A stretch of DNA of 35,102 bases from a virus (Duplodnaviria > Heunggongvirae > Uroviricota > Caudoviricetes), in the IMG/VR virus record IMGVR_UViG_2541047701_000002; one strand, given 5' to 3'. Shown here one piece after another: positions 22,176 through 27,306 of the stretch. The position numbers and the translations under genes are program-made. Positions within the stretch are counted from its first letter, which is position 1; each line of letters opens with the position of its first letter. The notes under the pieces are model-generated. The model saw nothing but the letters and a program-made list of their open reading frames with translations, did not search any database and was not told the origin of the DNA.

Positions 22176-22502
22176 TCAAGGACGTGACGGCGTAAAGATA
22201 AATTGTCTCTTCACTCCCTGACAGGGGCGATTCTTTTCAAATCGCCATTTCGCCATGGCCTTCACCACTTCATCACGAAACAAATTATGAGGCTCTGAGC
22301 GGAGAAAAACGATCCGTGTCACAGTCCCATCAGCACCAATATCGAACTTAACCTCAACCAGCCCCTTGATATAATTTGCTGCAGCATATTCCGGATATCG
22401 TGGATACACCGTCACTAATTGCCGGGGCTCATCAGCTTTTTGCTGCGAGCATCCCACTGCCAGGACAGATAACAGAAAAAGTAGTAAAAGGCGTCTTTTC
22501 AT
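22176..22502 (-). CDS. Putative envelope lipoprotein with TonB C-terminal-like domain (YbcV-like)
   Basis: Start trimmed to MKRRLLLLFLLSVLAVGC (lipobox-like LAVGC); C-terminal YPRYPEYAAANYIKGLVEVKFDIGADGTVTRIVFLRSEP...WRF resembles the TonB C-terminal fold. Confidence 0.6.
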   Translation of the reverse strand: MKRRLLLLFLLSVLAVGCSQQKADEPRQLVTVYPRYPEYAAANYIKGLVEVKFDIGADGTVTRIVFLRSEPHNLFRDEVVKAMAKWRFEKNRPCQGVKRQFIFTPSRP

Positions 22503-22982
22503 TTTTATTCCTACGGGTCTTATTCTGACAATATATCCTGTGTTCCAGACTGCCACATCACCACATCCTGTGCCATTATCTGACTCACATTACATACATC
22601 GCATCGGGATACAGTAGTAGCACTTTCTGTAATACAGCTTCCTGTTTCTTCCACCATCGCACCGGGATAAACCCGCGAATCATTAACGCGGTAAAAACCC
22701 GGTGTGCATCGTTTTTAATTATTCCCGCACACTCACGCAGAAGGAATTCCCCGTCGGGCTACGGTCATGGTTAATGCGGGAATACGGCGACGATACAGCG
22801 CAGCTAAAAGGGTAATGGACGGATAGACCGGTTTATTTCATTCCACAGGATTCTGAGTGTCCCCAACTTCCTCCAATAGTCTGAGCCCACCTGTGTAGTT
22901 TTAATTTTCATCAATCCATTTAACTATCGTTTAATTGTTGTCACATAGGATTCTGCCGTTTTTAACAATGCAGGATAATAAG

Positions 22983-23276
22983 ATGAAAAAAATGTTGTTT
23001 TCTGCCGCTCTGGCAATGCTTATTACAGGATGTGCTCAACAGACGTTTACTGTTGGAAACAAACCTACAGCAGTAACACCAAAGGAAACCATCACCCATC
23101 ATTTCTTCGTTTCGGGAATTGGGCAGAAGAAAACTGTCGATGCAGCAAAAATTTGTGGTGGTGCAGAAAATGTTGTTAAAACAGAAACCCAGCAAACATT
23201 CGTAAATGGATTGCTCGGTTTTATTACTTTAGGCATTTATACTCCGCTGGAAGCGCGTGTGTATTGCTCACAATAA
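22983..23276 (+). CDS. bor: Bor lipoprotein (serum-resistance lysogenic conversion protein)
   Basis: MKKMLFSAALAMLITGCAQQTFTV...EARVYCSQ, near-identical to lambda Bor; opposite strand to the lysis genes as in lambda. Confidence 0.93.
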   Translation: MKKMLFSAALAMLITGCAQQTFTVGNKPTAVTPKETITHHFFVSGIGQKKTVDAAKICGGAENVVKTETQQTFVNGLLGFITLGIYTPLEARVYCSQ

Positions 23277-23307: not shown

Positions 23308-23769
23308 CTATCTGCACTGCTCATTAATATACTTCTGGGTTCCTTCCAGTTGTTTTTGCATAGTGATCAGCCTCTCTCTGAGGGTGAAATAATCCCGTTC
23401 AGCGGTGTCTGCCAGTCGGGGGGAGGCTGCATTATCCACGCCGGAGGCGGTGGTGGCTTCACGCACTGACTGACAGACTGCTTTGATGTGCAACCGACGA
23501 CGACCAGCGGCAACATCATCACGCAGAGCATCATTTTCAGCTTTCGCATCAGCTAACTCCTTCGTGTATTTTGCATCGAGCGCAGCAACATCACGCTGAC
23601 GCATCTGTATGTCAGTAATTACCGCGTTCGCCAGCGTCAGTTCTCTGGCATTTTTGTCGCGCTGGGCTTTGTAGGTAATGGCGTTATCACGGTAATGATT
23701 AACAGCCCATGACAGGCAGACGATGATGCAGATAACCAGAGCGGAGATAATCGCGGTTACTCTGTTCAT
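23308..23769 (-). CDS. Rz: Spanin inner-membrane subunit Rz
   Basis: [39 protein letters not shown] matches lambda Rz (153 aa); ATGA overlap with the R stop. Confidence 0.93.
23367..23549 (-). CDS. Rz1: Spanin outer-membrane lipoprotein Rz1 (embedded in Rz, +1 frame)
   Basis: 60 aa, [49 protein letters not shown] matches lambda Rz1. Confidence 0.9.
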
Positions 23770-24263
23770 TGCTGACCCCACAAACAGATTTCACGCTCAA
23801 TCTCACGACGAGTCATGAGACCTTTCCATTGCTTACCGCCAGCATATGTCCAGCGACGTAGCTGATCACATGCGCCTTTGATATCGCCCTGGTTTATTTT
23901 GCGAAGAAGCGTCGATGTTCTGAAATTGCCAGCACCCACGTTGTAAACGAATGAGTAAAGAGCGCCGCGCATTGTTTCCGGTATATCGACTTTGATGTAC
24001 GGGTTAATTTGTCTGGCGACCGTGGCAAGGTCTTTATTCAGGAGGGCTTTGCATTCTGCTTTGGTATACGTTTTACCGAGCATGATGTCTTTTCCTGTAT
24101 GCCCGTGACATACAGTCCATACACCAACAATATCTTTGTATGGTATGTAGCTGACACCTTCCAGACCATCGTTACCACTTGGGCCAGTGATTAACACTGA
24201 TGCTATAGCAATTGCTCCGCCACCAATAGCAGCAGCAACGGCTTTTCGTAATGATGGAGGCAT
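23766..24263 (-). CDS. R: SAR endolysin (phage 21 R-type lysozyme, signal-anchor-release)
   Basis: 165 aa; [30 protein letters not shown] hydrophobic SAR N-terminus plus lysozyme core; matches the phage 21 / DLP12 RrrD type, not the lambda R transglycosylase. Confidence 0.9.
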
Positions 24264-24478
24264 TATTCACCTCTCGCAGCCTTGCGCTTATCTTCTTTAA
24301 TCTTGAAATAAAGGTTTGTCAGGTACGTCAGCAGGCCAAATACCAGGCTACCCAGCACACCTATTGCCGCCCACTGTGAGGGCGTGACTTTATCGAGCAA
24401 CTGTAAAAACCAGTACCCGGCACTACCTGCTGAGGTACCATAGGCGACACCCGTTGTTAACTTATCCATGGATTTCAT
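24263..24478 (-). CDS. S: Pinholin S (phage 21 S21-type, dual-start)
   Basis: 71 aa, [31 protein letters not shown]; two TM segments; Met1 and Met4 dual-start motif typical of S21 / EssD. Confidence 0.9.
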
Positions 24479-24604
24479 AACCCCACCTCGCAGACAAAGC
24501 GGGTGTAAATTAAGGGGATACTACGTATCGCAATAAAGGCAGAAACGTAACAGATTCGGAGTCAGTGAATAACTCAGGTATTGGGTTATCAGCTAATATC
24601 GAGA

Positions 24605-24640
24605 CTCAAAAAATGGAAAAACCCGCTCGACGGCGGGTTT
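24605..24640 (-). terminator. Rho-independent terminator-like hairpin about 130 nt upstream of S (candidate tR'-type late terminator)
   Basis: Minus strand AAACCCGCCGTCGAGCGGGTTT followed by TTCCATTTTTTGAG. Confidence 0.45.
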
Positions 24641-25066
24641 AAGCTGTGTGACGAAGTAACCACTCTTAACAGCATAACCAATTTTTTACGTACGTAAACT
24701 ACTAAATGATATTTGTGAGAATGCCACCGAGTGTTCAAAACACCACCACAAATGCATAAGAAAACTTCAACAAATAACCAGTTAATAATTTCCGACGTTA
24801 TTTTTAGTTTGTTTAAATTAAGCTAAAGAATTATAGAGCACTTATAAATAAGTGCCATTAATATAAATTAGCTAATAGATTTATTTTTGTTCAGACAAGA
24901 GCCATGAATAGGATTAGATAGAAAAGGTTCAGATAAAAATAGAGATCTACTTCACAAATTAAATGAGAAACTAAAACTTACATCTTGAAATAATCACATT
25001 GATTAGATGAATATTTATCGCGCAGTGACATCATTTTTTAATAATAGTTCAAAAAAAGGGCGTACA

Positions 25067-26149
25067 ATGAAAAAATTAACAGTGGCAATTTCTGCTGTAG
25101 CTGCATCAGTACTGATGGCGATGTCTGCTCAGGCAGCTGAAATTTATAATAAAGACAGTAACAAGCTGGATCTATACGGGAAAGTTAATGCCAAGCACTA
25201 CTTCTCCTCTAATGATGCAGATGATGGTGATACTACTTATGCCCGTCTTGGCTTCAAAGGTGAAACCCAAATCAACGATCAACTGACTGGTTTCGGTCAG
25301 TGGGAATATGAATTCAAAGGCAACCGTGCTGAATCTCAAGGTTCTTCCAAAGACAAAACCCGTCTTGCATTTGCAGGCCTGAAATTTGGTGATTACGGCT
25401 CAATCGATTACGGCCGTAACTACGGTGTAGCATACGACATCGGTGCGTGGACTGACGTTCTGCCAGAATTCGGTGGTGATACCTGGACCCAAACAGATGT
25501 GTTCATGACTGGTCGCACTACTGGTGTTGCAACTTATCGTAACAACGACTTCTTTGGTCTGGTCGATGGCCTGAACTTTGCTGCTCAGTATCAGGGTAAA
25601 AATGACCGCACTGACGTAACTGAAGCCAATGGTGATGGTTTCGGTTTCTCCACTACTTATGAGTATGAAGGATTCGGCGTGGGTGCAACCTATGCTAAAT
25701 CAGATCGCACTGACGGTCAGGTCGCCTATGGTAAGAGCAAATTCAATGCCTCCGGCAAAAATGCGGAAGTATGGGCTGCAGGCCTGAAATATGATGCGAA
25801 CAATATCTATCTGGCTACCACATATTCTGAAACTCAGAATATGACCGTTTTTGGTAATAACCATATTGCAAACAAAGCACAAAACTTTGAAGCAGTAGCA
25901 CAATATCAGTTTGACTTCGGTCTGCGTCCATCTGTTGCTTACCTTCAGTCAAAAGGTAAAGACCTTGGTGTTCATGGTGACCGAGACTTAGTCAAGTATG
26001 TCGATGTCGGTGCTACTTACTACTTTAATAAAAACATGTCCACTTTTGTTGATTACAAAATCAACTTAATTGACGATAGTAAGTTTACCAAAACAGCTGG
26101 TATTGATACCGACGACATCGTCGCTGTAGGTCTGGTTTATCAGTTCTAA
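25067..26149 (+). CDS. nmpC: Outer membrane porin, phage Lc / NmpC family (OmpC-like; lysogenic conversion)
   Basis: Start trimmed to [23 protein letters not shown] signal peptide; [17 protein letters not shown]...GLVYQF with C-terminal Phe; typical general porin; opposite strand to the flanking Q and lysis genes. Confidence 0.92.
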
Positions 26150-26159
26150 TCTGACTTAC

Positions 26160-26200
26160 GAAAAAGATATGTTGCGGGAGGCTTTGCCTCCGCAACATAT
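26160..26200 (-). terminator. Strong hairpin with U-run on the minus strand (terminator about 140 nt downstream of Q; also abuts the porin stop)
   Basis: 15-bp stem with one bulge: ATATGTTGCGG(G)AGGC TTT GCCTCCGCAACATAT; minus strand continues CTTTTTCG. Confidence 0.55.
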
Positions 26201-26287
26201 AAGTGGAGCCCTCAAGCCACTTCCTTTAGAAGCACTACCTTGCTTCTTACTATATAAACCTTCTGTTATATATTACCCTTTATTTTG

Positions 26288-26311
26288 GGGGCGTTTCCAC
26301 GCCCCATTTTT
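26288..26311 (+). terminator. Rho-independent terminator (plus strand) in the porin 3' region
   Basis: GGGGCG tttcca CGCCCC followed by ATTTTT; no T-run on the opposite strand. Confidence 0.55.
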
Positions 26312-26337
26312 AATAACTTTTAGTAAACAATTGCATA

Positions 26338-26721
26338 TCAATTAGAATTATTAGCAACGATATCCATATCTAACCGGATATCTAATGCCATTAACATCCC
26401 TTCAATTATGCCCTCAGCCTTCTGTAACCTTTTCCCGATATAACCATCCGAGCAGCAATGCTTACTTGCCAGTGACATGAATGTCATACCACATACATAA
26501 TAATCTACTAATAAATCGTGTAAATCGCTGTTGTTCTTTTTCAGACGGGCCATGCACCCGCAAATGATCATCGCGTCATCGTCACAACATTGCGGGCGAG
26601 ATTTTACTTTTGAAGGAATTAATCCCTTAAAACCGGCGGCAATGGACGACCAGGTCACATCTTCATGATTATTAGCCGCCCACGCACCCCAACGCTCAAG
26701 AACCATCTGAATATCACGCAT
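26338..26721 (-). CDS. Q: Late gene antiterminator Q (QuuD / phage 21-82 type)
   Basis: Start trimmed to [31 protein letters not shown] (GGAG RBS); 127 aa with Cys-rich zinc-binding-like motifs; matches DLP12 QuuD as I recall it. Confidence 0.85.
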
Positions 26722-26806
26722 CAACTTACTCCACAAAAATCAGACCAGAACGCCAATTACAAGCAAAAATCAACAAAACAGTATTAGTTGATTGTTATCT
26801 CTGACT

Positions 26807-26929
26807 TCATACTCCTGTTCCTGTCAGGGTTTTGGCGTAATTCTTCAGTATTCGGTAATCGGTCAAAACAGAACCGAGGAAACGATATAAGCGCAGACGC
26901 CCCCAGCGGTGGCGAAGAAGTTCTGCCAT
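26807..26929 (-). CDS. ylcG: Small protein YlcG-like (40 aa)
   Basis: Not in the ORF track (under 60 aa); hand-translated MAELLRHRWGRLRLYRFLGSVLTDYRILKNYAKTLTGTGV between rusA and Q as in DLP12; coordinates approximate. Confidence 0.5.
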   Translation of the reverse strand: MAELLRHRWGRLRLYRFLGSVLTDYRILKNYAKTLTGTGV

Positions 26930-26943
26930 ATTAAACTCAAACA

Positions 26944-27306
26944 TCATTCATTCCCCATTTCGGTGATGGTCAGTTCCAGCCTCCCACCTTTGGTAACAGG
27001 CATCTTCACAACGCGGTAATCAACGACCTGAGCATCATCCAGCCAGAAACCTGCTTTAGTGAGTGCGTCAAAAGCGGCTTTTTGCAGATTATCCAGGTCA
27101 CGGCGACGGCGATCCGGCATGTGGCACTCAATGCGGATTTTCACAGGCATAGCCAGGCCGATATCCAGCATTGCGTTTTTAATGATTCGGGCGACGTTAT
27201 CGCGGTATGCCTGCCCCTCTGCGCTGACGTGCGTGCGCCCGCGATTATGGCGGTAATAGCGATTATTGCTCGGAGGCCAGGGTAATGTGATGCTGTAGGT
27301 ATTCAC
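26944..27306 (-). CDS. rusA: Holliday junction resolvase RusA
   Basis: 120 aa, [42 protein letters not shown]... matches RusA; apparent GTG start. Confidence 0.95.

Follow-up and report, generated by a model that had tools for sequence, protein, structure and literature searches.

A Q21-family late-control module probably split in two, with pR' and its terminator just upstream of the lysis genes and a porin cassette next to Q

Described relatives of the late-control region

The closest described counterparts of the locus analyzed here are the qsr' region of prophage DLP12 in Escherichia coli K-12 and the corresponding segments of phages PA-2 (lc porin) and 434B, which share the order rusA, ylcG, quuD, antisense porin gene, late promoter block, essD, rrrD, and rzpD. 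In the viable phage 434B, a DLP12 segment with Q, the late promoter, and the lysis genes supports late expression. The window (the whole stretch of viral DNA that was analyzed, 35,102 nucleotides) has the same gene order, and its DNA is 90 to 99.9% identical to the segments of DLP12, PA-2, and 434B. The porin gene is broken by IS5 in K-12 and 434B, where the distance from Q to the block is 2886 nt.

The Stx phages 933W and VT2-Sakai (Sp5) are also similar at the late promoter. In Stx phages, unlike in the window, the promoter overlaps the end of the Q frame, whose TAA stop falls within a dyad. The PR' start of the Stx2 phage Sp5 has been mapped by dRNA-seq, with a Term-seq 3' end 258 nt away that corresponds to a second terminator at +258, and this promoter, homologous to the one described below, is active in vivo. 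The Stx cargo (tRNA genes and stx) follows PR' in the sense orientation and is therefore Q dependent, whereas the cargo of the window is Q independent because it is found upstream of pR' and in antisense.

Phage 21 (GenBank OL657228) has an annotated -35, QBE, -10, start, pause element, and terminator at +3 to +50. The window resembles it in the Q family (PF06530), in the order of the elements (with a candidate Q-binding element in the spacer and a presumed pause element), in a putative terminator that ends ca. 50 nt from the start, and in the cassette of S21-type holin and SAR endolysin that follows the late region. However, the phage 21 promoter begins 7 nt after the Q stop, while that of the window is 1.64 kb away, and there is no DNA similarity between the two promoters. 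Besides, a pair of direct repeats, ATTGAGCA and AATGAGCA, forms the QBE of phage 21, while in the window the candidate element is a dyad (TTTACGTACGTAAA), and the phage 21 terminator (dG -19.8, seven U) is stronger than its counterpart in the window, hairpin B (see below).

In phage lambda, Q loads at a promoter-proximal sigma70-dependent pause and then reads through terminators. The pR'/qut/6S RNA/tR' system follows the same logic as that proposed here, in that a constitutive late promoter gives a short RNA that is terminated and Q loads at the promoter-proximal pause, but lambda Q belongs to a protein family unrelated to that of Q21, the leader RNA has 194 nt, and the promoter adjoins Q.

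The Q gene of the window (26338-26721, minus strand, with its stop codon at 26338-26340) codes for an antiterminator of 127 aa of the QuuD type. The protein matches PF06530 (E = 6.7e-54) and, by phmmer, the Q21 chains 6P18 and 6JNX (E = 4e-8); its residues 1 to 120 are 81 to 84% identical to the Q of 933W and other Stx phages, including Sakai, and identical copies carry the name quuD in RefSeq. PF06530 had at first been assumed to represent the phage 82 family, but the search of PDB chains indicated that this Q is Q21-like. A likeness of the promoter block to the 82 pR' (pause at +25, GCC at +15 to +17) was also dropped, since the 82 pR' is AT-rich before the pause and the block is not.

The late promoter block upstream of the holin gene

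On the minus strand, positions 24703 to 24617 (ca. -38 to +48) are ca. 78% identical to the annotated pR'/qut/terminator block of the Stx phages, including the -35, the dyad, the -10, the initial transcribed region, and the first hairpin. The -35 hexamer TTTACG (24698-24693) lies inside the perfect dyad TTTACGTACGTAAA (24685-24698), which overlaps both this hexamer and the spacer, and the -10 hexamer TATGCT (24671-24676) aligns with TATCAT of the promoters that are labelled pR' in VT2-Sakai and SC370. A preliminary description of this DNA had listed TTTACG, 16 nt, TATGCT as a weak candidate upstream of the second of two hairpins. The pair is present, with a consensus match of 8/12 that falls under the scanner cut-off, and it is the homology with the Stx phages that identifies it as a promoter. 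Judged from the sequence, it is a sigma70 late promoter, on the same strand as the lysis and structural genes. A consensus promoter scan was discarded as a means of discriminating between Q-proximal and S-proximal sites, with 8/12 matches at both; two such pairs are located just after Q (26299-26270 and 26276-26249), and the promoter scores no better than these chance-level pairs. Because consensus counts alone do no better than chance, the weight is carried by conservation, and the block is conserved in hundreds of phages.

In the Stx phages, a distance of 258 nt measured back from the U-run of the second terminator reaches the homologous AAGAG, which predicts a start at ca. 24666-24664 in the window. 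It should be noted that the Sakai coordinates of the StxS paper refer to NC_002695.1, versus NC_002695.2 here, and that the start was placed by the 258-nt spacing instead. The predicted start belongs to a conserved initial transcribed region, AAGAGTGGTTACTTCGTCACACAGCTT (24641-24667, minus strand), which presumably contains a sigma70-dependent pause element. The initial transcribed region AAGAGTGGTTAC is common to the window and the Stx phages, which was seen independently of the search pattern. The Stx phages have TACATT at the corresponding position, while in the window copy we found neither a clear TATAAT-like pause element nor a hexamer that stood out by having both A2 and T6. The Q stop and the conserved AAGAG are 1670 nt apart in the window; the Stx phages have 18 nt between them, and another subtype has 41 nt. 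The textbook adjacency of Q and pR' known from lambda, 21, 82, and 933W, with the promoter within a few tens of nucleotides of the Q stop, is therefore not the situation found here.

Downstream of the start, hairpin B (AAACCCGC/GCGGGTTT) and its interrupted U-run (24608-24640, minus strand) appear, by fold, scan, and homology, to be the promoter-proximal terminator equivalent to tR'. The stem (24640-24619) has 8 pairs (dG -11.5, z = -2.0), and the tail, UUUUUCCAUUUUUU, extends to 24608. The 3' end of the hairpin is ca. 141 nt before the start of S (24478), and the constitutive RNA expected from pR' to hairpin B would measure ca. 50 to 57 nt. An untranslated leader (24607-24479) then leads to the first late gene, coding for an S21-type holin/antiholin (24478-24263; PF04971, E = 2e-35), the whole stretch being 24263-24607 on the minus strand. 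Across 32 sequence variants, the stem of hairpin B is kept and the loops differ; no compensatory double changes were found among them, the stem being invariant. We infer that hairpin B terminates transcription and is read through in the presence of Q. A consensus scan returned 3 terminator-like sites versus 2.0 +/- 1.3 expected.

It could also be that promoter and qut are indeed at 24698-24650 but that hairpin B is not the operative terminator, only a conserved leader hairpin involved, for example, in pause stabilization or Q loading. S would then be silenced by the weak promoter, by Rho acting in the 129-nt leader, or by translational control of the holin. The mapped PR' transcript of the Stx phages is 258 nt long and runs past the homologous hairpin, so that some polymerases must pass it, and this partial readthrough takes place even though the U-run of the Stx hairpin is better; however, RNAs of ca. 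50 nt are probably under-represented in the Stx RNA-seq data (our own reading, not that of the paper). Stx phages also retain the hairpin, although the second terminator is the mapped 3' end. A frequent variant, present at 26 loci and in the plaque-forming PA-2, has a stem mismatch, G to T in the 3' arm, which changes dG from -11.5 to -5.3, and the U-run of hairpin B is interrupted; still, hairpin B has the shape of an intrinsic terminator, and the VT2-Sakai record lists its homologue as a possible rho-independent terminator. In the leader, C is in mild excess over G (about 1.7 to 1), as could suit Rho. Yet, in phage 21, the prototype of the family, the terminator is likewise found this close to the promoter, and neither a scan of representative loci, including the window, nor the fold of the leader revealed a second convincing terminator in the S leader, which makes hairpin B the sole one before S in the window. 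Altogether, we regard a mere leader hairpin as unlikely and prefer hairpin B as the terminator.

The porin cassette between Q and the late promoter

The DNA between Q and the block is an exchangeable cargo (moron) module that extends from Q codon ~120 to ca. -40 of the late promoter (24704-26362). Similarity to other Q-bearing phages (loci L005, L046, L067, and L003) stops at 26362-26389 and restarts at 24699-24703, and relatives have unrelated cargo at the same place. The module includes the final codons of Q, hairpins 3 and A, and the porin gene together with the AT-rich region upstream of it, and GC content falls to 24 to 28% at 24700-25100. As expected for a moron, it is absent from homologous relatives, has sharp boundaries, and brings its own expression signals, namely a plus-strand terminator, the AT-rich upstream region, and CRP sites that are annotated in the PA-2 record. 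The porin gene (25067-26149, plus strand; PF00267, E = 1.9e-151) is of the NmpC/Lc/OmpD type, antisense to Q and the lysis genes, and carries the name lc, nmpC, or OmpD in the records of PA-2, 434B, and many further phages. A displacement of the late promoter by insertion of the porin had been proposed previously. The porin cassette does separate the promoter from Q, but insertion is a simplification, as the module substitutes everything from Q codon ~120 to ca. -40 of the promoter. Cassettes seen at this site include porin plus IpeX and the candidate defence genes PDC-S20, an HNH nuclease, and a methyltransferase with an ATPase.

Hairpin A (26161-26200, minus strand) begins 138 nt past the Q stop codon and is the strongest hairpin of the region. 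Its stem (26200-26167) has 15 pairs with a one-base bulge and a 3-nt loop (dG -21 to -23 kcal/mol, z = -3.4; 0/200 shuffles fold as well), followed by the tail CUUUUU at 26166-26161; only because of the bulge was it missed by the consensus terminator scan. Read on the Q strand, its stem, loop, and U-run together look like an intrinsic terminator, while on the plus strand the stem lacks a U-run. It is conserved, with changes confined to the loop and the bulge, and other cargo cassettes likewise open with a strong hairpin directly after the Q stop. Hairpin A may serve to stop the unmodified early transcript leaving Q.

A third hairpin, absent from the preliminary description, is terminator-like on the plus strand. 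This hairpin 3 (26288-26311 with its U-run) consists of the stem-loop GGGGCGTTTCCACGCCCC (26288-26305, dG -12.4) followed by ATTTTT, and its stem is invariant across 30 cassette variants, in which the loop alone varies. By scan and fold, it is an intrinsic terminator for transcription of the porin strand, and IpeX probably ends there. The length reported for the IpeX sRNA of DLP12 is 167 nt, and 167 nt counted from the porin stop end in the U-run after hairpin 3. The corresponding 3' part of the porin transcript (26150-26316, plus strand) is highly structured (-53.6 kcal/mol, z = -6.5). By this fit in length, the stretch is most likely IpeX, in which case the sRNA would begin with hairpin A as a stem-loop and be terminated by hairpin 3. 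The K-12 RefSeq feature table has no ipeX entry, and an Rfam scan of 24000-27000 gave two sub-threshold chance hits and nothing else. Strand-specific pairing in the RNA between Q and the porin gene was nearly the same for both strands (1569 versus 1575 paired cells), and both fold stably.

The two hairpins with U-runs reported earlier on the minus strand, after Q and before S, are thus both present by fold. It had been suggested that either could be the Q-antiterminated terminator, but, with the cargo boundaries at 26362 and 24703, hairpins A and 3 fall within the porin module. From this location, it follows that hairpin A is not tR'; it is also upstream of the sole qut-like element of the region. 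The ambiguity disappears, since hairpin B alone is downstream of a promoter homologous to the mapped PR', which is served by a closely related Q. A pR'/qut next to the Q gene, like that of lambda, 21, and 933W, with hairpin A as tR' and modified polymerase crossing the porin gene in antisense to reach S, would reproduce the textbook layout, which holds true in the Stx relatives, and would make use of the strongest hairpin, with its U-run on the Q strand, and of the two 8/12 promoter-like pairs that precede it. However, the stretch at 26340-26150 has no copy of the dyad and no significant similarity to the qut block; local alignment was at chance level (380/1000 shuffles score equally), and a degenerate second pR' module with hairpin A as its terminator was rejected on the same grounds. 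Furthermore, this stretch occurs only with the porin cassette, within the exchangeable module (the Q-proximal 206 nt were found only in porin-carrying phages, 36 records), and relatives with a Q 83 to 88% identical and other cargo do without it while retaining the downstream block. A late promoter adjacent to Q is thus very improbable, and the block upstream of S is preferred.

Q subtypes, their dyads, and the late switch

Scanning viral contigs for the block provided >120 loci, 105 of them with enough upstream DNA. The invariance of +1 to +24 across these loci is a product of the search pattern. In all 105, the strand of the block also carries a Q gene of the Q21 family, 18 to 2923 nt upstream. 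The type of dyad matched the Q subtype in every case (69, 16, and 20 loci), with ACGTACGT or ACGATCGT in one subtype, GCGTACGC in another, and GCGG-N-CCGC in the third; GCGTACGC and GCGGTCCGC go with the SfII-type and cdtI-type Q proteins. Within each subtype, the cargo between Q and the block varies and the downstream modules recombine, yet the dyad tracks Q. The dyad TTTACGTACGTAAA is present once in the 35-kb window (0.26 expected) and once in L005, a locus chosen by other means than the block, 1.9 kb downstream of a Q with 87.5% identity. This covariation makes the dyad the candidate Q-binding element, to which Q may bind.

That the block is an inactive relic, with the lysis cassette run by an upstream sigmaE-type promoter (25050-25018, start ~25018) or by early readthrough, seems the least probable of all: RpoE control has been reported for the DLP12 lysis cassette, the reporter numbering and primers put the published start ca. 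540 nt upstream of S, and a GAACTA-16-TCACT motif is found at that position, but a second promoter is compatible with the first, control of the lysis operon by a Q-type antiterminator has also been reported, viable 434B relies on this segment for late expression, and the block is conserved in hundreds of phages and covaries with Q.

We put at roughly 80% the probability that the window contains a Q21-family late-control module split in two, with pR' and its terminator just upstream of the lysis genes and with the Q-proximal hairpin A belonging to the porin cassette. Under this model, Q (26721-26338) would be produced from the early rightward transcript, and its cognate site would be 1.64 kb downstream, directly before the lysis cassette. 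The site would comprise a weak sigma70 promoter with the dyad TTTACGTACGTAAA over the -35 and spacer, a start near 24665, a pause region, and hairpin B with its U-run at ca. +25 to +57. Without Q, RNA polymerase would yield an RNA of ca. 50 to 57 nt and mostly stop; with Q, it would be modified at the pause and continue beyond hairpin B to transcribe S, R, Rz, and the late genes that follow. Hairpin 3 would halt the porin/IpeX transcript before its antisense entry into Q, and hairpin A would be a stem-loop of the porin/IpeX RNA that, on the opposite strand, may stop unmodified transcription leaving Q.

A broader proposal, to which we give clearly less than even odds, is that in the QuuD/933W/SfII/cdtI branch, Q reads a dyad-symmetric element, versus the direct repeats of Q21, and that the interval from Q codon ~120 to -40 of pR' is a dedicated exchange site for mostly antisense cassettes with their own terminators, Q staying matched to its distant site. 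If so, dyad recognition would imply a loading geometry unlike that of Q21. The matched dyads of the three Q subtypes are ready specificity swaps for studying how this branch of Q reads DNA.

The arrangement itself is ordinary and not novel, being already known from E. coli K-12 and present in ca. 46% of complete E. coli genomes, and it leaves unaltered the accepted view of how lambdoid phages control their late genes. For annotation, it means that pR', qut, and tR' of DLP12/PA-2-type prophages should be marked just before the holin gene rather than behind Q, and that the hairpins near Q are to be listed as parts of the porin/IpeX cassette. Since they belong to this cassette, porin and IpeX would be expressed independently of the late switch, unlike stx in the related Stx phages, which depends on it.

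Hairpins and gene order between Q and S

The late region of the window lies on the minus strand, in the order rusA (27306-26944), a ylcG-like ORF, Q (26721-26338), an S21-type holin gene (S, 24478-24263), a SAR endolysin gene and Rz/Rz1, with a porin gene (25067-26149) on the opposite, plus strand inside the 1.86-kb gap between Q and the holin. Many temperate coliphages share this stretch at 90 to 99.9% identity, as do phage PA-2 (lc porin) and the DLP12 segment that phage 434B carries, and the gene order is the same in DLP12 of E. coli K-12. Q matches PF06530 and the solved Q21 proteins 6P18 and 6JNX (E = 4e-8, phmmer). Identical copies are named quuD in RefSeq, and Q of 933W, VT2-Sakai and other Stx phages is 81 to 84% identical to it over residues 1 to 120.

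The holin gene has a dual start (MKSMDK, giving 71- and 68-aa products), and a stem CACCCGC..GCGAGGTG at 24479-24505 (minus) spans its Shine-Dalgarno sequence, resembling the start-choice structures described for S genes. Nested Rz/Rz1 spanin genes (23308-23781 and 23367-23549, minus) are found 3' of the endolysin, next to a Bor/Iss-like lipoprotein gene (within 22935-23276) on the strand opposite to the spanins, the same order as in phages 21 and 434B. An ORF with a possible TonB C-terminal domain, named after the annotation of phage 21, lies at 22176-22556 (minus).

The preliminary description had proposed two hairpins as candidates for the Q-suppressed terminator (tR'), leaving the late promoter (pR') and the Q site (qut) without a definite place. 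Both are present at the positions described. Hairpin A (26200-26167, minus) begins 138 nt past the Q stop; a single bulged base interrupts its 15 pairs (about -21 to -23 kcal/mol, z = -3.4), and a CUUUUU tail follows. Hairpin B (24640-24619, minus) has 8 pairs (-11.5 kcal/mol, z = -2.0), is followed by UUUUUCCAUUUUUU and ends about 141 nt before S begins. The promoter-like pair TTTACG-16 nt-TATGCT is also present upstream of hairpin B, at 24698-24671. A third hairpin (26288-26305), GGGGCG..CGCCCC followed by ATTTTT, is terminator-like on the plus strand. Judged by consensus alone, none of these signals rises above chance: the terminator scan found 3 sites against 2.0 +/- 1.3 expected, and promoter pairs matching 8 of 12 positions occur shortly after Q as well as upstream of hairpin B. 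The observation of two candidates was correct, but the ambiguity dissolves on comparison with related phages.

The probable late promoter block upstream of S

The 282 nt that precede S, used as a blastn query, matched porin phages and hundreds of Stx phages, the latter aligning at ca. 78% identity to 24701-24617 of the window. In the Stx phages the aligned sequence directly adjoins the Q gene and is annotated as late promoter, qut and possible rho-independent terminator. The -35 hexamer (TTTACG) and the initial transcribed region (TAAGAGTGGTTAC) are identical in both, the -10 hexamer is TATGCT in the window and TATCAT in the Stx phages, and hairpin B (AAACCCGC-loop-GCGGGTTT plus T-run) corresponds to the first Stx hairpin, which has a homologous stem, a different loop and a T-run. 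The Stx promoter is active, its start having been mapped by dRNA-seq and the 3' end of its transcript by Term-seq, 258 nt apart (Sy et al., PMC7547250). When this spacing is measured from the U-run of the second terminator annotated in VT2-Sakai, the start falls inside the homologous AAGAG, and by homology transcription in the window would begin near 24666-24664. We place pR'/qut at 24698-24650 with a probability of about 0.9. In Stx phages (positions 1204-1217 of locus L003, VT2-Sakai) the Q frame reaches its TAA stop within the dyad TTTACGATCGTAAA, part of the late promoter of the same phage, so that the 3' end of the gene and the presumed binding site overlap.

Placing pR' right after Q instead, with hairpin A as tR', appears very improbable, as the 190 nt next to Q do not resemble the block significantly, lack the dyad and have no homologue outside porin phages.

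With pR' upstream of S, hairpin B is probably the operative Q-suppressed terminator. In the annotated phage 21 prototype (OL657228), the -35 hexamer is 7 nt past the Q21 stop, followed by the QBE in the spacer, the -10 hexamer, the start site, a sigma-dependent pause element (+2 to +8) and a terminator (+3 to +50). A terminator ending ca. 50 nt from the start is thus normal for the Q21 family, and hairpin B, at about +25 to +46 with its U-run reaching about +57, occupies the same place. The window has no other convincing terminator between promoter and S. Against this role, some Stx PR' transcripts read past the hairpin B homologue to end at +258, and the U-run is interrupted. In a frequent variant, carried by PA-2 and by 25 further loci, the 3' arm reads GCTGG instead of GCGGG (at the equivalent of window position 24624), and the resulting stem mismatch reduces the stability from -11.5 to -5.3 kcal/mol; PA-2 is nevertheless plaque-forming. 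No compensatory changes were found in the stem. For these reasons, we hold the role of hairpin B less firmly than the location of pR'/qut.

Distribution of the block and its Q-subtype-linked dyad

Scanning viral contigs with an exact pattern for the initial transcribed region gave more than 120 loci; invariance from +1 to +24 among them is imposed by the pattern, only the Stx comparison being independent for that segment, and the promoter spacer lies outside it. A Q21-family Q gene was found upstream on the same strand in all 105 loci with enough upstream DNA, at stop-to-block distances of 18, 41, 631, 827, 862, ~1120-1180, ~1456-1702, 2316, 2462, 2886 or 2923 nt (1669-1688 nt in the porin class). 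The sequence of the spacer dyad tracked the Q subtype with no exceptions among the scanned loci: TTTACR-NN-CGTAAA with QuuD/Q933W (69 loci), GCGTACGC with SfII (16 loci) and GCGGTCCGC with cdtI (20 loci). This match persists although the cargo between Q and the block varies within each subtype, and although downstream modules have recombined at the conserved transcribed region in L012 and L060. These two loci are natural recombinants, with the joint within the initial transcribed region or the hairpin; L012 combines Q and dyad of SfII type with the leader and S21 cassette of the window type, and L060 has Q and promoter of the window type with a different downstream module. A single copy of the dyad TTTACGTACGTAAA is present in the whole 35-kb window. 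Phage IdasGreatGrand, chosen independently of the block (Q 87.5% identical), likewise has one copy of TTTACAATCGTAAA, which lies 1.9 kb downstream of Q and precedes a good -10 hexamer. The dyad behaves as expected of a Q-binding element, and we infer from these sequence patterns that Q may bind it. Of 5,426 complete E. coli genomes, 2,656 contain the block and 2,501 the Q-proximal segment, Nissle 1917 and the species type strain among them.

The porin module and lysis control

Homology to other phages with QuuD-type Q stops at 26362 (around Q codon 120) and restarts at 24699-24703, and the 206 nt after Q were found only in porin-carrying phages, indicating that hairpins A and 3 belong to an exchangeable porin module (24704-26362). 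The region upstream of the porin (24700-25100) falls to 24-28% GC and ends exactly at the start of the pR' block. Across 30 cassette variants the stems of hairpins A and 3 are invariant, and only loops and bulge vary. Downstream of its coding part, the porin transcript has a 3' untranslated stretch (26150-26316, plus) that is ca. 167 nt long and highly structured (-53.6 kcal/mol, z = -6.5); 167 nt counted from the porin stop end within the U-run of hairpin 3, a canonical terminator. It fits the published IpeX sRNA of DLP12, which we tentatively place at 26150-26316 from the fit in length; ipeX is absent from the RefSeq annotation of K-12. On this placement, hairpin A would form the first stem-loop of IpeX and hairpin 3 would terminate it. 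Strand-specific pair counts for the Q-porin intergenic RNA were uninformative. On the Q strand, the U-run 3' of hairpin A makes it a plausible terminator of unmodified transcripts leaving Q, and other cargo cassettes also have a strong hairpin, often bidirectional, directly after the Q stop.

The gap between Q and pR' (L009-L128) is a site of cargo exchange with more than 20 length classes and mostly antisense genes, among them a PDC-S20 KAP-type NTPase (L021), an HNH nuclease PDC-M68A (L037), a cytosine methyltransferase with an ATPase (L110) and many without a family match.

The late control of the window is an already known system. The DLP12 lysis operon is reported to be controlled by a phage Q-type antiterminator, RpoE and Hha, and growth of phage 434B is supported by a DLP12 segment with Q, late promoter and lysis genes. 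A sigmaE-type promoter motif, GAACTA-16-TCACT, is found at 25018-25050 (minus), with a start near 25018, ca. 540 nt upstream of S, a position deduced from how a DLP12 lysis-cassette reporter is numbered ("-121 to +650") and from its primer sequence. Any transcript starting there would have to pass through the pR' block and hairpin B.
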